Origin: an uncultured Rhodospirillales bacterium
GTDB taxonomy: Bacteria > Pseudomonadota > Alphaproteobacteria > Rhodospirillales > JAPHRK01
Reading direction: 5' to 3'
Assembly (NCBI GenBank): GCA_965368335.1
Contig: CBDUMN010000002.1
Location: 26,135 to 90,134, forward strand
DNA: 64,000 bases
Shown here: positions 14,345 through 28,397 of the stretch, in pieces
How positions within the stretch are numbered: the stretch's first letter is position 1
Layout of the letters: the number at the start of each line of letters is the position of its first letter
Made by a program: the position numbers and the translations under genes
The notes under the pieces: generated by a model
What the model was told of the DNA's origin: nothing
Seen by the model: the letters and a program-made list of their open reading frames with translations, nothing else
Database searches by the model: none

Positions 14345-14371
14345 TCAACTGAGAAGTTGGGGGGAATGAAA

Positions 14372-14422
14372 TGGTCGGAGCGAGAGGATTCGAACCTCCG
14401 ACCCCTTGACCCCCAGTCAAGT
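14372..14422 (-). repeat. Displaced 3' fragment of tRNA-Pro (island attachment-site repeat, integrase-proximal)
   Basis: tggtcggagcgagaggattcgaacctccgaccccttgacccccagtcaagt is identical to 28321..28371. The tRNA 5' half is absent here. Confidence 0.95.
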
Positions 14423-14500
14423 TTTTTGATTAAACATGGTTAAACAAGTCAAAAAGTCATACCCATAAAAACGGCTGTTTTATTGCGCTTTTTACAACAT

Positions 14501-14556
14501 GGTGTAACATGGGGTAACAGCAAGAAACGGGGTTTGTGTTACCCCGGCGTTACCCC
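14501..14556. promoter_or_regulatory. Cluster of GTTACCCC/GGGGTAAC octamers upstream of int (candidate arm-type recombinase sites)
   Basis: GGGGTAAC at 14511..14518. GTTACCCC at 14538..14545 and 14549..14556. A near-copy GGTGTAAC lies at 14501..14508. The same octamer pair recurs at the other island end. Confidence 0.5.
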
Positions 14557-14593
14557 GAATGACCTTTTGACCCTGCGGAAGGACCTTTTGACC

Positions 14594-15871
14594 ATGCCCA
14601 CAATTAAGCTGACCGCGCGCGCCCTCGACCACCTTCCAGTACCGGCGAAAGGACGCCTTGAGTTTTGGGACGCCGCCCTTCCCGGCTTCGGGCTCCGCAT
14701 CACCGACCGGGGCGTTAAGTCCTGGGTGGTGATGTATCGGATAAACGGAAAGTCGCGACGCCACACCCTAGGCCGCTATCCGAAAATGCTTCTTGGCGAT
14801 GCGCGGGAGGAAGCGCGAGAAGCGATGCGGGCCGTCGAAAAAGGTGATGATCCGGCGGCGGAAAAGAAAGCGGCCCGAAAGGCTGCGCCCGACAGCTTCG
14901 GCCAGGTGGTTGAAGACTATTTCAACCGCGACGCCAGCCGACGGAATAAAGCCTGGGTGGAAACCCGGCGTCTGATTTTACGAGATTGTGAGAAATGGAC
15001 TAATCGGGCGATCAGGGACATTTCGCGCCGAGAGGTTCGTGATCTTCTAGACGGCATCGTGGATCGTGGCTCCCCCGTCATGGCAAACCGGCTGTTTGCG
15101 TATATCCGTAAAGTTTTCAACTGGGCCGTTGATCGCGAAATCATCACAGAATCGCCCTGCCGTGGATTGAAAAAACCGAGCGAAGAGCGAAGCCGCGACA
15201 GGGTTTTGACGGACGGAGAGCTTGTAGAATTTTGGAACGCTGCCGACGCGCTGGGCTATCCCTTCGGCCCGCTTTACCGGCTCGCCCTGCTGACGGCGCA
15301 ACGGCGCGGCGAAGTCGCCGCCGCTCGATGGCAGGATATCGACTTGAAGCGCGGCGTTTGGACCCTCCCCCGCGAAAAGACTAAATCCGACCGCGCCAAC
15401 GAAGTGCCGCTTTCGGACTTGGCGATTGCCGAGTTGAAAAGCCTGCCCCGCTTCAAATCCTCCGCCCTGCTATTTCCTAGCCGCACAAAAACGCAACTCG
15501 CTAATAAAGACCTGAAACGAGACGCGGAGGACCACCCGATCTCTGGATGGAGTCGCAGCAAAAGACGCCTCGACGAACTCATCGCCAAGGAACGCACTAA
15601 GAACGATGTGGAACCGATGCCCGGATGGACGATCCATGACCTGCGCCGCACCGCCGCATCAGGAATGGCCCGCCTCCGCATCGCGCCCCATGTGGTCGAG
15701 CGCCTTTTAAACCACACAGAAGGCGAAATTTCAGGCGTCGCAGCCGTCTACAACAGGTATGGATACGAGGATGAAAAACGCCAAGCAACAGATGCTTGGG
15801 CACAATTCTTAATGTCATTATTGAATCAAAAAGATAATAGGAACGTGGTCAAAATCGAGGTTCGTGGTTGA
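14594..15871 (+). CDS. int: Tyrosine recombinase / phage integrase (P4-type with N-terminal arm-binding domain)
   Basis: The N-terminus (LTARALDHL...GFGLRITDRGVKSW) is DUF4102-like. C-terminal catalytic residues are HDLRRTAAS, LNH and VYNRYGY. The ATG at 14594 is preferred over the track start at 14483. Confidence 0.9.
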   Translation: MPTIKLTARALDHLPVPAKGRLEFWDAALPGFGLRITDRGVKSWVVMYRINGKSRRHTLGRYPKMLLGDAREEAREAMRAVEKGDDPAAEKKAARKAAPDSFGQVVEDYFNRDASRRNKAWVETRRLILRDCEKWTNRAIRDISRREVRDLLDGIVDRGSPVMANRLFAYIRKVFNWAVDREIITESPCRGLKKPSEERSRDRVLTDGELVEFWNAADALGYPFGPLYRLALLTAQRRGEVAAARWQDIDLKRGVWTLPREKTKSDRANEVPLSDLAIAELKSLPRFKSSALLFPSRTKTQLANKDLKRDAEDHPISGWSRSKRRLDELIAKERTKNDVEPMPGWTIHDLRRTAASGMARLRIAPHVVERLLNHTEGEISGVAAVYNRYGYEDEKRQATDAWAQFLMSLLNQKDNRNVVKIEVRG

Positions 15872-16751: not shown

Positions 16752-17032
16752 TGAGTCCCCGCCGCGAAATGGGAATCGCCGTCTATCAGGCCGCTAGGGC
16801 AATCCGCCAACACCGCCCGGATGAGGTGCGCTCGAATAGTTTGGGCGGATTTCACCGTATCCCCGGATTTCATATTCAATTTCACCGGAATCGAGGTCGC
16901 ATTGTCGTCACCAGCATGGCCGGACTTTTCGACGGCCACCTAAGGGCCGGTCGCATCGCGATAACTCGATTTCAGCGTCCCCATGATTGGGTCGATAAAT
17001 TCTTGGCCTACGTAGACGAGGTGACGCCATGA
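16748..17032 (+). CDS. Island hypothetical protein (94 aa)
   Basis: ATGA overlaps at both ends, with the alpA stop and with the primase start, which suggests translational coupling. The composition is weak and no family was recognised. Confidence 0.45.
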   Translation: MMSPRREMGIAVYQAARAIRQHRPDEVRSNSLGGFHRIPGFHIQFHRNRGRIVVTSMAGLFDGHLRAGRIAITRFQRPHDWVDKFLAYVDEVTP

Positions 17033-19557
17033 CGCAAAAACGAAAAGCCCCCGCGCCGGGAAGCAACGGGGGCCTCAATTCCAAGGAGAATAACAGGATC
17101 GATTATAGCGGAAATGCACCCCAAGCACCAGCCGCATTCACCCCCTACCCGCAGTTTATCCTGTGGCGGCTCGAACATCGCCCCGGCGAACCGAAACCGG
17201 CAAAAGTCCCGTTCGATCCGCGCACCGGCTCCCGCACGAACCCGCACGATCCGGCGAACTGGCTCTCACATGACGAAGCCGCATCGTTCCTCGCCGTCTA
17301 TCCCGATGCGGGACTCGGTTTCGTATTTACCGAGAACGATCCCTTCACGTTCATCGATGTGGATTCTTGCGTGCAACCGGACGGAACGCTTACGGCACTT
17401 GCCACCGATATTTACAGCCGGTTCCCCGGTGCCGCATTCGAGTGGTCAACGTCACAAACCGGTTTCCACCTGTTCGTCACCGGTCCCGTTCCCGAACCGT
17501 TCCGTAAGAACAACCGTCAACTTCACATCGAGTGCTACACCTCTAAACGGTTCGTCGCTCTGACCGGGATCGGTGCGCAAGGTGACGCATCAATAGACCA
17601 CACCGCCGCGCTCGCTGCGTTCCGTGATGCTTATCTCGCTACGGATGGCGCGACCATAGACGATGCGGACTGGACCGACGCCCCCGTACCGGAATGGAAC
17701 GGGCCGACCGACGACGACGAACTGATCGCCCTCGGTTGCCGTATGACCAGCGCAGCCAGTGCGTTCAATGGTCGCGCCACGTTTGCCGATCTATGGAACG
17801 GTAACGAAGAACGCCTAACAGATACCTACCCCTCCGACACCGACGTATTCGGACGTTCTGAAGCGGACTCGGCACTATTCTCACACCTTGCATTTCTTAC
17901 CGGTAAAGACTGCGAACGGATGGAACGCATCGCCAGACGGTCGGCTCTATACCGCGACAAATGGGAACGCGACGATTACCGGCGTAACACCATCCTCAAG
18001 GCTGTGGCGCGGTGCGAGAACGTGTACTCAAAGCCCGATCCTGCCGCGATCACGGAGACCGAGGCGCTCGACACTGCCCGGACGTTCACGAGGGACACCG
18101 CCGGAAGCGAAGTGTCCGAACTCCTCGGACGTATTGCCTCGGCGGGACTAAGCGGAATCTCCCAAGAGGCAATCCTCCGAACGGTTAAAGAATTTACTGG
18201 ACTGTCCCTCGGCACCCTTCGCCGTGAACTTAACGCAACCGCCAAGGACGACGAGGACCTTGCACTGCTTGTCGCCCAACGTGTCGAGAACGAACGGTTC
18301 GCCGGAGGACGGCATATCCTCCGAGATCAATTCTCGACGTTCAATGTTTACACCGGAAAATATTGGGTAACGAAAACCGACGAGCAAATCGGAAACATTG
18401 CCTTGGGTGTAATCGAGGCGTCTGACGACCTGGGCCGGGCGAGCCGTCCCCAACTCGTTAAAAACGTCATACACCTTTTGGCCGTTCGGAATGTGGTGCA
18501 AAGCGATGTAATGGGGCTGACGAGCGAACCGCGTCCCCTTATCAACTGCGACAATGGCGAGCTTCATTTCGACGAAAACGGGGGCGTCGCTTTTTATAAT
18601 CACACGGCTGAAAGCTACCTACGCTACGTCCTGCAAGTTCCGTACACACCCGGCGCGCAGGCTGATCGACTCGACGCGATCCTCCTCGGAATTTTTGCCA
18701 ACGCAACCGATCCCGCCGGGATGGTGCGCCATATTTACGAAGTGATTGGCTACGCGATTCAGCCGGACCGATTCATTCCCGCCTTTTTCATATGGCAGGG
18801 ACAGGGACGAAACGGAAAATCCCTCCTCACGGGATTGATCGAGGCGCTTATGAGTCCCGCCGCCGTACACAGCGGTTCGATGTCAGAGCTCCAAAACAAT
18901 CGGTTTGCCATTGGCTACCTTTTGGGGAAGCTCATTCTCCTCGACGACGACGTGACCACTGGACAACGGCTGCCTGACGGGCTCCTCAAGAAAATTTCCG
19001 AGCGGAAACTCCTCACGGGCGAGCGCAAGAATAAGGACCCCTTCGAGTTTGTCGCAACGGTTCTCCCGATCATGCTGACAAACAATTTTCCCACCGTCTC
19101 GGACCTGTCCCCAGGCCTCCGACGCCGCGCGTATGTCGTACCGTTTAGCCGGATATTTACCGACGAAGACGCGGACCCGAACCTCTTATCAACTATCTGC
19201 GCGACAGAACTTCCCGCATTGTTGAACCGGGCAATCGAGGGGTTCCAGCGTCTACGCGCACGCGGTCGGTTTGAGGAGCCCGTCGATTGTGTCGTTGCGA
19301 AACAGGCTTGGTTAGAAGAGGCAAACCCGCTCCCGGCGTTCCTCAATGAGAAGTGCACGCTCGGCGATGGTCACTCGGTTTTGATTTCTGACTTTTACCG
19401 ACACTTTCAAACCTGGGCATTGCAGAACGGATACCGCTCCGTCCCGATCCAAAAAGTCGTCAAACGGGACCTCAAAAATATGGGCTTCGGCGAACACAGG
19501 TACAGCAGCGGAATTCACATCATGGGCTGCACCGTAGGTACACCCCTAACCCACTGA
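17029..19557 (+). CDS. Primase-polymerase (AEP) fused to a D5/P4-type SF3 helicase
   Basis: 842 aa. The N-terminal AEP-like acidic motif is GLGFVFTENDPFTFIDVDSC. The C-terminal part has Walker A (GQGRNGKS) and Walker B (KLILLDDDV). Confidence 0.85.
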   Translation: MTQKRKAPAPGSNGGLNSKENNRIDYSGNAPQAPAAFTPYPQFILWRLEHRPGEPKPAKVPFDPRTGSRTNPHDPANWLSHDEAASFLAVYPDAGLGFVFTENDPFTFIDVDSCVQPDGTLTALATDIYSRFPGAAFEWSTSQTGFHLFVTGPVPEPFRKNNRQLHIECYTSKRFVALTGIGAQGDASIDHTAALAAFRDAYLATDGATIDDADWTDAPVPEWNGPTDDDELIALGCRMTSAASAFNGRATFADLWNGNEERLTDTYPSDTDVFGRSEADSALFSHLAFLTGKDCERMERIARRSALYRDKWERDDYRRNTILKAVARCENVYSKPDPAAITETEALDTARTFTRDTAGSEVSELLGRIASAGLSGISQEAILRTVKEFTGLSLGTLRRELNATAKDDEDLALLVAQRVENERFAGGRHILRDQFSTFNVYTGKYWVTKTDEQIGNIALGVIEASDDLGRASRPQLVKNVIHLLAVRNVVQSDVMGLTSEPRPLINCDNGELHFDENGGVAFYNHTAESYLRYVLQVPYTPGAQADRLDAILLGIFANATDPAGMVRHIYEVIGYAIQPDRFIPAFFIWQGQGRNGKSLLTGLIEALMSPAAVHSGSMSELQNNRFAIGYLLGKLILLDDDVTTGQRLPDGLLKKISERKLLTGERKNKDPFEFVATVLPIMLTNNFPTVSDLSPGLRRRAYVVPFSRIFTDEDADPNLLSTICATELPALLNRAIEGFQRLRARGRFEEPVDCVVAKQAWLEEANPLPAFLNEKCTLGDGHSVLISDFYRHFQTWALQNGYRSVPIQKVVKRDLKNMGFGEHRYSSGIHIMGCTVGTPLTH

Positions 19558-20303: not shown

Positions 20304-21161
20304 TTAGGCAGCCCGTCTCTCAAACTTGATCGGGCTGAGGCCGTTTAGGTATGAATGGCGTCGGCGGGCATTGTAAAATCCGTTTATGTATTTGAACAAT
20401 ACCTTTCTGGCCTGCTCCCGTGTCCGGAAGGCGATTTTCCAGACCATTTCCGCCTTCAGGGTTTTGAAGAAGGTCTCCACGGCGGCATTGTCGTAGCAAT
20501 TTCCCTTGCCGGACATGGACTGTCTGAACTTATGTGTGGTGAGCAATCTTCTGAACTCGTTGGAGCAATATTGCGAGCCGCGATCCGAATGAAAGATCAC
20601 GCCTTCAGGCGGCTTGCGAAGAGCTATGGCCTTGTTCAAGGCGTCGATGACCAAGTCCTTTTTCATCCGCCGGCTTGCCGACCAGCCGATCACTCGGCGG
20701 GAATAAAGATCGATCACGACCGCTAGGTAAAGCCAGCCTTCCTTCGTCCAGAGATAGGTGATGTCGCCAGCCCATTTCCGGTCAGGCCCAGAAGCCTCAA
20801 AGCCCCCCTCCAACAGGTTGGGGGAGATGTTGTGGCTATGGTCGCTATCCGTCGTGCGTTTGAACTTCCGGCTTCGCACGACCCGCAAAGCGTTTTCCTT
20901 CATGAGGCGGGCAACGCGGTGCGGACCGACATCAATGCCTTGCTCCTTCAATTCGTCCGTCATGCGGCCACGGCCATAGGCTTGGTAATTGGCGTGATGA
21001 ATAGATTTGATGTGAGCGAGCAGAACCAGATCTTCACGCTGGTGTCTACTTGCAGGGCGGCTTCGCCAAGCGAAATAGCCGCTTTCGGAAACGTTCATAG
21101 CCCGGCATAGCCTTGCGATGCTGTGGCTTTGACGCTGCTCGTGAATGAACGGGAACTTCAC
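20304..21161 (-). CDS. IS3 transposase OrfB (DDE/rve integrase core), probably expressed as an OrfAB -1 frameshift fusion
   Basis: 285 aa with an rve-like core (WAGDITYLWT...HSDRGSQY...NAAVE). Confidence 0.9.
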   Translation of the reverse strand: MKFPFIHEQRQSHSIARLCRAMNVSESGYFAWRSRPASRHQREDLVLLAHIKSIHHANYQAYGRGRMTDELKEQGIDVGPHRVARLMKENALRVVRSRKFKRTTDSDHSHNISPNLLEGGFEASGPDRKWAGDITYLWTKEGWLYLAVVIDLYSRRVIGWSASRRMKKDLVIDALNKAIALRKPPEGVIFHSDRGSQYCSNEFRRLLTTHKFRQSMSGKGNCYDNAAVETFFKTLKAEMVWKIAFRTREQARKVLFKYINGFYNARRRHSYLNGLSPIKFERRAA

Positions 21162-21430
21162 GGCTTTTGGCTCGCAAAGTAACGAGCCGCCTTTTTTAGA
21201 ATATCCCTCTCCTCCTTGAGTTCACGAACTTCACGGTGGAGGCGGGCAAGCTCCTTGTGAACATCATCAGATGGCTCAGAGGCCTCCCTGTCCCGGTGCA
21301 AGGAAATCCACCGGTTAAGGCTGTTCACGCTAATGCCGAAATCTTCAGCGACCACCCGGCGGGACTGGCCGCTCGTCAAGGCGACGTGAACCGCTTCAGC
21401 TCGGAATTCAGGGGTAATCTTTCTCTTCAT
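21158..21430 (-). CDS. IS3 transposase OrfA (HTH)
   Basis: 90 aa. FGISVNSLNRWI is the HTH and a leucine-zipper-like region follows. It ends just past the slippery AAAAAAG at 21191..21197. Confidence 0.9.
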   Translation of the reverse strand: MKRKITPEFRAEAVHVALTSGQSRRVVAEDFGISVNSLNRWISLHRDREASEPSDDVHKELARLHREVRELKEERDILKKAARYFASQKP

Positions 21431-22719: not shown

Positions 22720-22928
22720 TGAATCAGGAACTTAGAGCGCAGATAGTGGCAATCAAAACCGCGCTCGGCCCGTCGCATCCCGCGCTCTTGGCGCTTGCCA
22801 GAGCGACCAGCTTGCGCGACCACAGCGCCGCCTTGGCGCTACTAACGAAAGACGAGCGGCTGGCGGTCGGGGCTCTGTTGAAAAGCGACGGACCGGTCGG
22901 AACGGGCTCATTCTCAATCCGGTTCTGA
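22719..22928 (+). CDS. Island hypothetical protein (69 aa)
   Basis: The ATG overlaps the protease stop by 1 nt. The track start at 22710 is also possible. Confidence 0.45.
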   Translation: MNQELRAQIVAIKTALGPSHPALLALARATSLRDHSAALALLTKDERLAVGALLKSDGPVGTGSFSIRF

Positions 22929-23207
22929 CTGCACCACAGCAGCTTCTACGTCACGTCCACAATGCTTACATACTATCGCCGCTGCTTTAATTTCTTCTGC
23001 ACAATAAGGGCAAGTTCGCGTCTCGGCTGTCAAATTGATAGCTACATCAGAAACGCTTGGCATCGCCAACAGCGCCACCAAGCCGAAAACACCGAACACC
23101 AATCCTAAGACAAACCAGGCCCCAGCACTCCGCCCACGTCCTGGGGCAATCACAGAGCACAAAACACCAAACCCCATCCAAATCATAATGATTATCGTTT
23201 CAATCAT
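22914..23207 (-). CDS. Small membrane protein with a C-terminal zinc ribbon
   Basis: Start at MIETIII. Two hydrophobic helices are followed by CPYC...CKHC. Confidence 0.55.
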   Translation of the reverse strand: MIETIIIMIWMGFGVLCSVIAPGRGRSAGAWFVLGLVFGVFGLVALLAMPSVSDVAINLTAETRTCPYCAEEIKAAAIVCKHCGRDVEAAVVQSEPD

Positions 23208-23347
23208 TTCATTTATCCTTTTGTTCGGAAGGCAGGGGAGAGACGGCACCGTGAGAACATTGTGTAACACGAGTAAGTACGGCAAATAGTTTTAAAGCAT
23301 TCATTTCGACCTGCTGTTCTCCCTGATTAGCTGTGCAATCATAGTAA

Positions 23348-23578
23348 GTTCTTGCCAAGATTGCGACATGGAATAGGCGCTACCCTGGCTGCCGATGTCC
23401 CTTCGAAAAACCAATCACATTTGAAGGTCAAATGAAGGCGCTGGATGGCGATACGCTCAAATTTGAAAAACAAAGGCTACGTTTGTTTGGGGCCGCTGCA
23501 CCTGAGATGGACGACCCGCGTGGCCCACTGGCCCGAGCTGCCATAGATGATCTAATCGCCGGGAACAGAAGGAGATAA
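23348..23578 (+). pseudogene. Truncated SNase/thermonuclease-like fragment
   Basis: The open frame reads ...ITFEGQMKALDGDTLKFEKQRLRLFGAAAPEMDDPRGPLARAAIDDL then stops. This matches the GDT...RLxGIDAPE N-terminal core of SNase proteins, as in the intact gene at 27589..28056. It has no signal peptide and no C-terminal half. Confidence 0.45.
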
Positions 23579-24439: not shown

Positions 24440-24566
24440 ATTCTTAGTCTCGCTCAGCCTCTATTCCTGCACGGACCCTCTATCGGGGTAGATTGTGGCT
24501 AGCTACTGCCGTTCCTCAACTGCCTATCCAATTGCAATACTCTTACATTAGTTCTATAACCCTAAT

Positions 24567-24581
24567 GTTCCCCATATGTTC
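24567..24581 (+). promoter_or_regulatory. Alphaproteobacterial-type LexA (SOS) box
   Basis: GTTC-cccatat-GTTC fits GTTC-N7-GTTC and lies 17 nt upstream of the umuD ATG. A third GTTC is at 24551. Confidence 0.6.
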
Positions 24582-24597
24582 CTTCACTGGGCTACCT

Positions 24598-25008
24598 ATG
24601 CTTTATCGTGCTGAAACCACCACTTCCTGCCCTCTCCCTTTGTTCTCTTCAACGGTTCGCGCGGGGTTCCCAAGTCCTGCGGAGGACTTCGTTGAGGGAA
24701 GCTTGGACCTAAATAAACACCTCATTGAACACCCTGCCGCCACGTTCTTTATGCGGGTCTCTGGAGACTCGATGACGGGGGCCGGTATTTATCCCGATGA
24801 CCTCTTGGTGGTGGACAGAAGTCTCAAGGCGGTTGCTGGGAATATCGTGATTGCTGTCCTGCATGGTGAATTGACGGTGAAGCGCCTAGCCAAAGAAAAG
24901 GAGGCGTGGTTTCTGAAGGCGGAAAACCCTGACTACCCAAGGTTCGAGTTGCCTGAGGATGCTGAAATCTGGGGAGTTGTCACAAGCTCTATACGAGCCC
25001 TCCGATGA
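24598..25008 (+). CDS. umuD: Translesion polymerase V accessory subunit UmuD (S24 peptidase)
   Basis: An Ala-Gly cleavage context ([12 protein letters not shown]), GDSM (Ser) and VKRL (Lys). The ATG at 24598 is preferred over the track start. Confidence 0.88.
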
Positions 25009-26270
25009 TCATCGCCCTAGTCGATTGCAATAACTTTTATTGTTCCTGTGAACGGGTGTTCCAGCCAAGGCTTGAAGGACGTCCCGTTGTTGTTCTCTCC
25101 AACAATGATGGTTGTGTGATTGCCCGTAGCAATGAGGCCAAAGCTTTGGGGGTTCCCATGGGGGCTCCTTACTTCAAGCACAGGGAAGTCTTGCAGAAAG
25201 CTGGCGTTGCCGTCCGGTCCAGCAACTATGCTCTCTATGGCGATATGAGTCACAGGGTAACGACAGTCTTGAGCCGCTTCACACCTAACATTGAGGTTTA
25301 CAGCATTGATGAATGTTTCCTGGACCTCTCAGGCTTCAATGGTCGCGATCTAACGGCCTATGGACAGACGATCCGCGACACAGCCAAGCAATGGACGGGC
25401 ATCCCGGTTTCCGTTGGTATTGGCCCGACAAAGACCCTTGCTAAGATCGCCAATCGCATCGCCAAGAAAGACCTGGAGGCAGATGGTGTCTGTGACCTCA
25501 CCGATCCTGCCTTGGCTGAAGCTGCGATGAGCAATACAGAAGTCGGTGATGTTTGGGGCATTGGCAGACGTTGGCGAAAAATGCTGGAAGGTCGAGGCAT
25601 CCATACAGCCAAGGACTTGAGGGATGCCCAGGAAGGCTGGATTCGTCAGAAGATGGGCGTGGTCGGCCATAGAACCGTTATGGAGCTTCGTGGAACCCCT
25701 TGCGTTGACCTTGAAACCGTTCCTCATGACAAGCAAACGGTCTACGTTTCCCGTACCTTCGGCAAGCCCATGACGGACTACGAGGGGCTTCACGCAGCCA
25801 TATCGACCTTCGTCATGAAGGCAGCGGAAAAGCTACGCAAGCTCGACCTTGTGGCGACCCACATCAACGTCTTCGTTCACACGGACCCCTTTCGGGAAGA
25901 CCGGGCGCAGTACAGCAATTCGGTTACGGTCGATCTTCTGACAGCGACCAATCATAGCGGCAAGATTTTAGCCGCAGCCTTGCGTGGACTGAGAGGCATT
26001 TACCGTTCTGGATACCACTACAAACGAGCCGGTATTCTGCTTCTAGACCTAGAGCGGTCAGGCTATGCACCCAGGACATTGTTTGATCATGAGGACCAGA
26101 AAGGGCAACGCCTCATGGCTGCTGTCGATGCCATCAACAAACGCTATGGTCACGGCATGGTCAATTACGGACAGATCAGGCGCTCATCGACGTGGTACAT
26201 GACGCAAGAGCACCGATCACCCAGGTTCACCACTCAGTGGGATGAATTGCCTGTAGTAAAATCTAGCTAA
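25005..26270 (+). CDS. umuC: Y-family DNA polymerase V catalytic subunit UmuC
   Basis: 421 aa. [16 protein letters not shown] and SIDECFLD are Y-family motifs. It overlaps umuD in an ATGA. Confidence 0.92.
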
Positions 26271-26384: not shown

Positions 26385-27029
26385 CTAATCATCATTCCGC
26401 TCGACCCTGACCGCTGTTCCATTGGCGACCAGCATCAGCATTCCATGCTTCCCGCCCCCAGAAATTTCTTGATAGTCGAGGTCGGTCGCTATCACTGCAT
26501 TCGCCCCTACTAAATGGGCCTCAGTTCGGAGTTCTGCGAGACACGTTCGCTTCGCATCACGTAGCACCTTCTGTGAGGCTTTGCTTCTTCCGCCAAAAAC
26601 ATCCCGAACCTCAGCAAAAATGTCGCGGAAGATGTTCATCCCATAGACGCACTCGGCGGAAATCAAATCAATAGTTTCAACGACTCGGTAGCCCTCAAGA
26701 GTGGGGGCTGTTGTCACTATGACATTTTTGGCTTCTAGCTTAGCTTGAAATGCATCGATTTCATCTGGATTAACTTGACGTGTTGATAGTCGCAAAGGCC
26801 CAGATTGTGCGCTTAGCTCCATCATTTCGCCAGAACGGATGATTTGTAGCGTTACCGTTTCAGAGTTTCGGTGTTGAGCGATTGCTTCCGTTAATTGCTG
26901 GGAAGTGCCAATCCGTTGGCCCATGTAGGAGTACAGCAAATCGCCTTCACGAACACCAGCTTCATAAGCATTATTTCCTGAATCAACTGTGACTACAATT
27001 ATTGTGTTTTCATCGAGATCATAGCTCAT
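26385..27029 (-). CDS. PDZ-like domain fused to a YbjQ/UPF0145 domain
   Basis: The N-terminus is PDZ-like ([27 protein letters not shown]...[14 protein letters not shown]). The C-terminus is TTAPTLEGY...[18 protein letters not shown]...[14 protein letters not shown]...LVANGTAV, which aligns by eye along E. coli YbjQ. A strong SD (GGGAGGGGGAG) precedes it. Confidence 0.75.
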
Positions 27030-27052
27030 AACTCCCCCTCCCTTTATAGCAA

Positions 27053-27592
27053 TTAGGCCAACTTTACCGCTGTCCCATTCGCTACCAGCATAATCATCCC
27101 CCCATCCTTGTATCCGGGAAATTCTTGGTAATCTAAGTCGATTGCAATCACAGCGTCCGCTCCAACCATCAATGCTTCTCGACGAAGCTCTGTTAAAGCT
27201 GTGCGACGAGCGTCCCTAAGAACTTTCTGGGAAGCCCTACTTCTCCCGCCCACAACATCACGAACGGCTGCAAACATATCTCTAAACATATTCATGCCAA
27301 AGACGCACTCGGCGGAAATGATTTCAATCTCATGTTCAATTTCGCGCCCTGCAACCTGAAAAGAAGTTGTGAGGACAATTTCAGAAGCAACTCGGGAAAT
27401 AATTTCTGCTGGAGTATCTGACCAATCTCCAGACTCGCGGGACTTATCAATTAACGCCTGTTGGTGGGCCTCAATTCGTTCCCTACGGTCCGCATCAGTA
27501 GGTAGCGGAGCATTGCAATGCGGGCAGGCTGTCTGGTCCGAATACGTTTCTTTCTGACATGATGGGCAGGTAACTACAGTTGAAAGCATCAT
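27053..27592 (-). CDS. Zinc-ribbon domain fused to a YbjQ/UPF0145 domain
   Basis: The N-terminus carries CPSC...CPHC. The C-terminal YbjQ domain is paralogous to 26385..27029. The ATG at 27592 overlaps the SNase stop (ATGA). Confidence 0.75.
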
Positions 27593-28056
27593 TTTTCCCT
27601 TTTGGACTTTCGCCATTCCCATGGCGAAATAAACTCGCCGCTCCACATTCCACGATGATCGCTCATGGCGCGAGCCTCTTGATCGACGTAATCCCCTGAG
27701 TATTTCCTGTATGCTAGCGCCCAGCCAGCGGAGACCATTTCCGCATTGAGGTTCATTTGCCCTACAAAGCAGATGCCAATAAGCCGATTATAGCGATCCT
27801 TTACGCCACCCTCGCAGTGGACATTATTATTCCCAATGAGTTTGCCTAGGTACGCCTTGGCATCCTTTCCACACAGGAACTGCTCACTATGTTTGGTCAT
27901 GCACTTCTGCTTAATTTCGGGGGCATCAATGCCGTGAAGGCGAATGCGTTGTTGATTGATGATAATCGTGTCGCCGTCGGTCACTTTGGCAGTGCCAGTG
28001 AGTTCAGCTGCATGAGCAAAGGAGGTCATAAAGAGAAACATCAGAAAATATTTCAT
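27589..28056 (-). CDS. Thermonuclease (SNase-fold) family nuclease with a signal peptide
   Basis: 155 aa. MKYFLMFLFMTSFAHA-AE looks like a signal peptide. DGDTIIINQQRIRLHGIDAPE is the SNase core. Confidence 0.85.
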   Translation of the reverse strand: MKYFLMFLFMTSFAHAAELTGTAKVTDGDTIIINQQRIRLHGIDAPEIKQKCMTKHSEQFLCGKDAKAYLGKLIGNNNVHCEGGVKDRYNRLIGICFVGQMNLNAEMVSAGWALAYRKYSGDYVDQEARAMSDHRGMWSGEFISPWEWRKSKREK

Positions 28057-28235
28057 GGACGCAACATTACCATCATTGCGACATTATCGCTAGAGACACC
28101 ACCCTTGCTGGTCGCCAATAGATTATAAAGACGGCGCGCCAATCGAAATAGGTCCTTTCCCGATTCGCTACTGACAGGGCCGCAACACTGAGGGCAATGG
28201 GCCCCTGATGATTTCCCCTGTGATATTTGTCTGCC

Positions 28236-28255
28236 GTTACCCCAAATGTTACCCC
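28236..28255 (+). promoter_or_regulatory. Two direct GTTACCCC octamers at the tRNA-proximal island end
   Basis: GTTACCCC at 28236..28243 and 28248..28255, ending 65 bp from the attachment repeat. The same octamer occurs at 14511..14556. Confidence 0.5.
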
Positions 28256-28260
28256 AAAAC

Positions 28261-28287
28261 AAAAAAAGCACCCCGCGATGGAGTGCT
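28261..28287 (-). terminator. Rho-independent terminator downstream of tRNA-Pro, encoded by island DNA
   Basis: On the minus strand the sequence reads agcactcc-atcgc-ggggtgct followed by a 6-T run (then g, then tttt). The stem is 8 bp and includes one G-U pair. It lies about 34 nt after the tRNA 3' end. Confidence 0.65.
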
Positions 28288-28320
28288 ATTTTTGTAAGCT
28301 ATTGTTTTTTAAGTTTAAAT

Positions 28321-28397
<77 letters not shown>

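Follow-up and report, generated by a model that had tools for sequence, protein, structure and literature searches.

Three sets of described mobile-element genes come nearest to the locus reported here. The lambda rexAB genes and the exclusion lipoproteins Cor and Llp are co-transcribed with phage repressors in lysogens. Streptococcus pyogenes prophages carry secreted DNases (Sda1/Spd), of beta-beta-alpha-metal fold and exported by Gram-positive secretion, as cargo next to the attachment (att) site, and the plasmid RK2/RP4 encodes ParB, an SNase-family, Ca2+-dependent nuclease, together with a resolvase in its parCBA stabilisation locus. These can be considered the closest analogies, and none of them includes a YbjQ component. 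The YbjQ/UPF0145 family itself is broadly conserved in bacteria, E. coli and Bacillus included; its crystal structures date back to 2005, and it has no assigned function. Here, we analysed a stretch of 64,000 nucleotides (referred to as the window) from an uncultured Rhodospirillales bacterium (contig CBDUMN010000002.1, positions 26,135 to 90,134), in which a 13.9-kb genomic island lies between two 54-nt repeats and carries, at its tRNA-proximal end, an operon encoding an SNase-family nuclease and two YbjQ proteins with different N-terminal modules. With a probability of roughly one half, we consider this operon to be a stack of accessory functions of the 'moron' type that would serve the element in its resident state, wherein nuclease and YbjQ are linked facultatively and the exclusion of incoming DNA or phage would be the likeliest benefit. 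The operon comprises the following features:

27589..28056, minus strand: SNase-family nuclease (thermonuclease/YncB-like), 155 aa; PF00565 E=1.2e-15; AHA/AE cleavage motif and four conserved Cys
27053..27592, minus strand: Zn-ribbon-YbjQ protein, 179 aa; PF01906 E=1.2e-27; phrog_15412
27030..27052, minus strand: intergenic spacer of 23 nt, containing a GGGAGGGGGAG ribosome-binding site read from the sequence
26385..27029, minus strand: PDZ-YbjQ protein, 214 aa; PDZ_2 E=2.9e-10; PF01906 E=1e-28

A preliminary description of this locus had reported tight coupling of the three genes, which we could confirm: the stop codon of the SNase gene and the start codon of the Zn-ribbon-YbjQ gene overlap as ATGA (27589..27592), and only the short spacer with its ribosome-binding site separates the second gene from the third. 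The 179-aa product that starts at 27592 is identical to a protein on public record. Pfam matches and alignments likewise bore out a signal-peptide-like nuclease with a DGDT core and a YbjQ domain in both downstream proteins. The nuclease matched PF00565 with 58.3 bits (cutoff 21), and its N-terminus (MKYFLMFLFMTSFAHA, followed after the cleavage point by AE) resembles a signal peptide, as read by eye from the sequence and the alignment. In a 16-sequence family alignment, D27/G28/D29/T30, R39, D44, E47, Y89 and R91 were invariant, as were C52, C62, C81 and C96. We take D29, R39, D44, E47 and R91 to correspond to D21, R35, D40, E43 and R87 of the S. aureus enzyme, which are catalytic or Ca2+-binding, and the catalytic residues are, by alignment, intact. 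With its putative Sec-type signal peptide and the four conserved Cys, the protein is predicted to be exported, and it is probably a disulfide-stabilised nuclease of the Ca2+ type that acts in the periplasm or extracellularly. More than 2000 homologues (50–77% identical) were found, and they are abundant in marine alphaproteobacterial genomes.

The Zn-ribbon-YbjQ protein consists of a four-Cys ribbon, a long helix, an 'SGDWS' linker and the YbjQ/UPF0145 domain, while the PDZ-YbjQ protein comprises a PDZ domain (approximately residues 10-85), a helix (residues 88-101) and again the YbjQ/UPF0145 domain. Both YbjQ domains matched PF01906 over its full length (96.9 and 100.4 bits, cutoff 23, profile positions 1/2-103), and the PDZ_2 match reached 40.7 bits (cutoff 27). 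The Pfam Zn-ribbon models stayed below their cutoffs; C9, C12, C23 and C26 of the ribbon, together with W57, were invariant in 21 Zn-ribbon-YbjQ homologues, and the AlphaFold (AF2) model of this protein has beta-hairpins at residues 6-17. The conserved CxxC...CxxC arrangement and the modelled fold are those of a Zn ribbon. Both fusions were modelled confidently as AF2 monomers (pLDDT 86.5 for PDZ-YbjQ and 86.3 for Zn-ribbon-YbjQ). Foldseek searches with the PDZ-YbjQ model retrieved the YbjQ structures 1y2i (E=6.8e-10, TMt 0.83) and 1vr4 as well as the PDZ domains of RseP, DegQ and MucP, and fold searches against the PDB and BFVD gave nothing beyond function-unknown YbjQ structures and generic PDZ domains. 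Both N-terminal modules had been proposed beforehand and stood up to these analyses, as did the absence of an export signal from either protein, and both fusions are predicted to be cytoplasmic.

The close resemblance of the two YbjQ domains, previously noted by eye, amounts to 63% identity over 110 residues. Recent gene conversion between the two paralogues was considered and rejected, as the YbjQ domain of each is 66-71% identical to homologues elsewhere versus 63% to its neighbour. Full-length homologues of PDZ-YbjQ showed 41-47% identity. The profile phrog_15412 covered residues 8-179 of Zn-ribbon-YbjQ (E=9.6e-38, profile positions 3-156 of 159) and the YbjQ part of PDZ-YbjQ (E=1.3e-41), and the clade to which the window proteins belong is marked by a motif that runs from ECVFGMNIFRD, through a stretch with 15 letters not shown here, to GANAVIAVDLDYSE. 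The best-conserved segment of the domain, GMNIFRDxFAxVRDxxGGRSxAxQK, was the sole low-confidence stretch in both AlphaFold monomers (residues 132-150 of PDZ-YbjQ and 101-118 of Zn-ribbon-YbjQ) and may form a flexible loop at a subunit interface or a ligand site. The YbjQ homologues in the PDB are structural-genomics pentamers with five chains per entry, and mixed oligomers of the paired paralogues are plausible.

How does this locus compare with what has been described? With E. coli/Shigella YbjQ and Bacillus BC_1816 (PDB 1y2i, 2gtc and 1vr4) the window proteins share the PF01906 domain (profile E=2e-37 to 3e-31, target-normalised TM 0.81-0.83), but those are single-domain proteins of the core genome, whereas the window forms have an N-terminal Zn ribbon or PDZ domain plus a helical linker, are encoded on an island and come from a clade characteristic of temperate phages. 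Like rexAB and the genes for Cor/Llp, homologues of the YbjQ fusions lie behind CI-type repressors, some of them coupled to a small lipoprotein gene; however, the fusions are related to RexA/RexB, Cor or Llp neither in sequence nor in fold, and the window operon sits at the att end rather than beside a repressor. Sda1/Spd and the window nuclease, for which export is predicted, are both encoded at the attachment-site end as cargo of the lysogenic-conversion type, but the window enzyme has the SNase OB-fold and belongs to a Gram-negative envelope, and Sda1/Spd have no YbjQ partners. RK2 ParB is also an SNase-family nuclease on a mobile element, as is an SNase that we found on a ParM-type plasmid-like element (L124), yet parCBA/resolvase genes are absent at the window operon. 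When the three operon proteins were searched against PADLOC-DB v2.0.0, we obtained a weak SNase-domain match to the C3a212 model (SNc+LTD; 26 bits, E=1e-6), a chance-level match to LmuB (E=0.017) and nothing for PDZ-YbjQ. The C3a212 match joins SNase residues 22-126 to positions 50-158 of 279, which is the generic core; the window SNase has no LTD and the model has no YbjQ. The window proteins are true members of the SNase, PDZ and YbjQ families, and the operon belongs to no named system. Its composition was rightly suspected to be undescribed, since neither a PADLOC model nor a paper covers the three-gene set, and the literature retrieved for YbjQ, UPF0145, PF01906, DUF74 and phrog_15412 contained no functional study and nothing on YbjQ in phages.

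To place the operon among related loci, an SNase hidden Markov model (HMM) made from 122 sequences was run over approximately 2 Mb of YbjQ-anchored loci, and viral contigs were scanned by alignment, single-protein queries being too narrow. An SNase and a YbjQ fusion were linked in six lineages (counted without phylogenetic correction), in four of the six within 600 nt (binomial p ~0.0025 against uniform placement), and no SNase beyond these lineages was found in the YbjQ-anchored flanks. In a Mu-like prophage (L001), a repressor gene is followed by an SNase gene and a PDZ-YbjQ gene, the last two overlapping by 23 nt, while in L153 a close relative of the window's Zn-ribbon-YbjQ gene precedes two further genes, an abutting one for an SNase with four Cys and a signal peptide and, after it, one for a lipoprotein. 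In L206 the SNase gene lies 525 nt from a tandem YbjQ pair; in the abovementioned L124 element the Zn-ribbon-YbjQ gene is 2.3 kb away, and in L319 the SNase and the YbjQ fusion share an element at a distance of 3.65 kb. All linked SNases have, as read from their sequences, signal peptides and conserved Cys pairs, and among 133 flanking proteins SNase was the sole recurring non-regulatory Pfam family. The differing gene order among the linked lineages points to selection rather than to one inherited arrangement. The SNase-YbjQ association is real and above chance, and it is also facultative and asymmetric: of the YbjQ fusions examined on mobile elements, over 90% had no SNase nearby, and YbjQ was found in none of 79 viral SNase loci (0.55 Mb). 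The expectation that the three genes would be linked in other genomes was therefore borne out in part, as SNase-YbjQ linkage and YbjQ pairs do recur, but not as a fixed three-part system.

These data also bear on another account, according to which unrelated SNase and YbjQ cargo was gathered at an insertion-tolerant island end. Both families are common as stand-alone cargo; the 79 SNase loci lacked YbjQ, the nearest SNase with genomic context (P0123, 63% identical) is found beside an insertion sequence (IS) and an integrase with no YbjQ, and the island itself is a mosaic that contains an IS3 element, UmuDC and a dead SNase copy. What makes pure juxtaposition doubtful in our eyes are the four independent adjacencies below 600 nt, which come in three gene orders and with start/stop overlaps, the two same-element cases, the lack of any other SNase in the YbjQ-anchored flanks and the singular recurrence of SNase among the flanking proteins.

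Alternatively, the three genes could form an integrated nuclease defence system in which the YbjQ fusions detect infection and switch on or control the SNase as effector, a role of sensors or regulators that had been suggested for them in the preliminary description. Tight translational coupling, SNase-YbjQ adjacency in four lineages, varied N-terminal modules on a constant core reminiscent of sensor-effector designs, and a place outside all PADLOC models would suit such a system. Direct sensing or regulation of the nuclease by YbjQ is disfavoured, however, because the SNase is predicted to be exported and the YbjQ proteins to be cytoplasmic, and a cytoplasmic sensor would be unable to gate a periplasmic enzyme directly. 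Together with the frequent occurrence of either family without the other and the variable partner genes (a lipoprotein gene, none, or a repressor gene only), this conflict with the predicted topology renders an integrated system improbable. Even less probable, to the point that we give it very little credence, is that YbjQ acts as a cytoplasmic immunity factor or chaperone that holds the SNase precursor inactive or export-competent in a barnase-barstar-like manner. The order of nuclease then partner would fit, with the ATGA overlap in the window and the 23-nt overlap in L001, but in L153 the YbjQ gene comes first. An inhibitor of this kind always accompanies its nuclease, and an obligate pairing is excluded because most fusions are without SNase and the 79 SNase loci without YbjQ. 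Moreover, given what is known of staphylococcal nuclease, an SNase that depends on Ca2+ and contains disulfides should show next to no activity in the cytoplasm, which likewise counts against an immunity factor.

The Zn-ribbon and PDZ YbjQ fusions were overwhelmingly found on mobile elements, namely temperate phages, satellites and plasmid-like elements. On viral contigs, nearly every copy of the clade had an N-terminal Zn ribbon or PDZ domain, and further contexts of the fusions comprised a satellite-like element that also has primase and capsid genes, a ParM-type plasmid-like element and an integrative mobilizable element. The commonest position of the fusion gene is immediately downstream of a CI-type repressor gene: in at least 17 non-redundant viral lineages, such a repressor gene was located directly upstream of the YbjQ fusion on the same strand. 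Upstream genes with a helix-turn-helix (HTH) and/or S24 domain, at gaps of -56 to +38 nt, were present in ten loci, L016, L020, L024, L027-L030, L032, L033 and L035, with more repressor-YbjQ cases in L330, L334 and L336, and 30 proteins encoded upstream of YbjQ fusions yielded 9 Peptidase_S24, 9 HTH_3 and 2 Phage_CI_repr matches in Pfam. The same arrangement occurs in a cultured phage, the Mu-like Rhodovulum phage RS1 (JF974307.1; L118:4249-5414), where the YbjQ gene starts 18 nt after an annotated 'phage repressor' at the genome end; the related Rhodobacter phage RC1 gave an equivalent YbjQ-gene match. In two prophages (L210:3386-4245 and L211:478-1325), a lipoprotein gene of 86-91 aa with a lipobox overlaps the start of the Zn-ribbon-YbjQ gene, and this pair is convergent with an HTH_3 repressor gene, a position typical of exclusion genes. 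Expression in lysogens is the rule for accessory loci (PMC7067206), and the repressor-adjacent position of the YbjQ genes is typical of lysogen-expressed genes.

Tandem YbjQ pairs were present in about four further contig families (the L155 family, L197/198, L206 and L208), with Zn-ribbon-YbjQ paralogues at 9-nt gaps on marine metagenome contigs (L155:1126-2105, L197:3031-3959, L206:844-1862 and L208:1754-2787). As tandem pairs recur in these families, the paired YbjQ design of the window is not unique. In L206, the pair is followed by a gene for a small two-transmembrane protein and another for a secreted protein. These patterns lend themselves to a broader proposal, which we put forward tentatively and hold to be possible rather than probable: the Zn-ribbon/PDZ-YbjQ proteins (phrog_15412) might constitute a hitherto undescribed and widespread family of proteins for exclusion or defence in the resident state. 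A pentamer (or a mixed pentamer of tandem paralogues) would sense an infection or envelope cue through its N-terminal module and act at the inner membrane, where MscS-type channels, the operon partners of core YbjQ, are conceivable targets; exported proteins, for instance an SNase or a small lipoprotein, would work with it.

The YbjQ clade is not restricted to mobile elements. In Halomonas and marine Rhodospirillales it occurs as a short core-genome protein, to which the YbjQ domains are 60-70% identical. The possibility raised earlier, that the fusions are ordinary core-genome genes, consequently applies to the clade, which also has core members in these bacteria, but not to the fusions, which are overwhelmingly mobile. 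In marine Rhodospirillales, a gene for an MscS-like channel (Pfam MS_channel) lies 0-36 nt after the short core YbjQ gene in approximately 21 loci (L050:8342-9262, L041:5561-6499 and about 19 more, including L053, L054, L065, L072, L090, L100, L129, L130, L133 and L140), and this conserved two-gene arrangement may be a clue to the function of YbjQ. Other neighbours of YbjQ genes are a Na/Ca exchanger gene after the core YbjQ gene in Halomonas (L095), amiD, which encodes a lipoprotein amidase and overlaps E. coli ybjQ by 4 nt (L119:2192-3342; host DNA contained in the 'phage' record ON470620.1), and the gene of the secreted phosphatase PhoX, 155 nt upstream of a Zn-ribbon-YbjQ homologue (57% identical) in an apparently chromosomal locus (L209:2921-5537). 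A match in Escherichia phage 813R9 was rejected as a phage gene, as it lies in host flanking DNA (ybjQ-amiD). The plasmid database contained ordinary single-domain YbjQ alone, on megaplasmids and chromids, and a metagenome scan with a YbjQ alignment showed no enrichment of PDZ forms among the matches listed.

These neighbourhoods would suit an explanation by host physiology, in which the nuclease would scavenge phosphate or nucleotides from extracellular DNA and YbjQ would tune ion, osmotic or envelope homeostasis, as its core-genome relatives may do, with the island raising host fitness rather than excluding other DNA. The channel genes behind core YbjQ, the exchanger, amiD and PhoX neighbours, the abundance of the SNase family in marine alphaproteobacterial genomes and the high similarity of the YbjQ domain to core copies all speak for it. 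Yet the PhoX and exchanger neighbours were each seen once, any YbjQ-channel interaction is hypothetical, and placement behind phage repressors and on satellites or plasmids is typical, albeit not exclusively, of exclusion and immunity genes, so that we regard a purely physiological role as unlikely.

We therefore return to the reading of the operon as stacked resident-state functions. On this reading, the operon would combine functions that benefit both the element and its host; the nuclease would destroy DNA at or outside the envelope and thereby exclude incoming DNA or process extracellular DNA, and the YbjQ pair, which may form a mixed oligomer, would carry out a separate task in the cytoplasm or facing the inner membrane, for which the Zn-ribbon and PDZ modules would provide binding inputs. 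Co-selection and co-expression, rather than an obligate sensor-effector circuit, would then connect nuclease and YbjQ. Several observations weigh against this reading. The linkage is the exception among the fusions and absent from the viral SNase loci, as detailed above, and the pairing could just reflect that both families are frequent cargo of the same hot spots; in addition, the lineage counts ignore kinship and genes in the fetched loci were called by a simple longest-ORF heuristic. A PADLOC check of the flanks of 60 YbjQ-fusion loci (the 133 proteins) revealed no enrichment of known defence genes and thus lent no support to the defence function initially envisaged, and the similarity of the YbjQ domain to core-genome copies would be no less compatible with a borrowed housekeeping function than with an immune one. 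The window operon itself has no adjacent repressor, its neighbours being tRNA-Pro and UmuDC, and neither a sigma-70 consensus nor a sigma-70-like promoter was found upstream of it; its expression in the resident state is an extrapolation from its homologues.

The island that carries the operon has the following features:

14369..14422, strand not applicable: left-hand direct repeat, 54 nt, a copy of the 3' half of tRNA-Pro, 98% identical to 28318-28371; island boundary
14483..15871, plus strand: island integrase of the tyrosine type, with Arm-DNA-bind_3, Phage_int_M and Phage_integrase matches, at the end opposite the operon
17029..19557, plus strand: primase-helicase, the island replication gene, with D5_N/DUF5906 and an NrS-1 polymerase-like HBD; phrog_1829 DNA primase E=1e-126
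23348..23575, plus strand: decayed SNase fragment, E=4.8e-6 with the SNase HMM, HMM positions 24-56 aligned
28057..28317, minus strand: leader and putative promoter region from the att repeat to the SNase start, with a terminator-like hairpin (28267-28287) downstream of tRNA-Pro
28321..28397, minus strand: tRNA-Pro(GGG), the integration target, the 3' half of which forms the right-hand repeat (28318-28371)

With tRNA-flanked repeats, a tyrosine integrase and a primase-helicase, this is an island of the P4-like/primase-integrase type, and its status as a satellite is putative; capsid-redirection or packaging genes were not identified among the island proteins, which include a ClpP-like head-protease remnant only. 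The repeats, integrase and primase thereby corroborate the earlier view of the operon as att-proximal accessory cargo of an integrative island. The second, decayed SNase copy that had been reported is real but amounts to merely a motif fragment of about 33 residues, truncated and without signal peptide, in which the DGDT...RLxGxxAPE segment alone is kept. Besides this dead copy and the head-protease remnant, the mosaic includes an IS3-family element inserted mid-island (20304-21430, minus strand; HTH_Tnp_1 orfA and rve orfB) and a UmuD-like (Peptidase_S24) and UmuC-like (IMS, IMS_C, DUF4113) pair (24493-26270, plus strand), an SOS-mutagenesis cargo convergent with the SNase operon. Next to the dead SNase fragment lies a gene (22914-23285, minus strand; phrog_8436) whose product is a small membrane protein ending in a Zn ribbon. 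The hairpin after tRNA-Pro, on the minus strand, is on the island side of the repeat, and a 72-aa open reading frame (28053-28271, minus strand) that starts within it and shares an ATGA overlap with the SNase start is probably not a gene. In an Rfam search the tRNA was the sole element found. The window also contains the plsX-fabH-ihfA-tRNA-Pro neighbourhood and an IspDF fusion, both of which would point to an alphaproteobacterium.

Altogether, the locus represents a new composition among the accessory cargo of mobile elements and not a self-contained nuclease defence system. We did not find described elsewhere that a Zn-ribbon/PDZ-YbjQ clade recurs in the immunity regions of temperate phages and on other mobile elements, nor its frequent tandem pairs, its facultative but non-random link to predicted exported SNases and small lipoproteins, or the pairing of core YbjQ with MscS. 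Should the operon be ordinary fitness cargo, it would still be clarified as a composite rather than a new nuclease defence system. If the exclusion or defence reading were true, it would provide the first function for the UPF0145 family. In either case, the orphan YbjQ family now comes with testable hypotheses and is a candidate for phage-exclusion screens, for which the cultured Mu-like phages RS1 and RC1 may serve as a test system.

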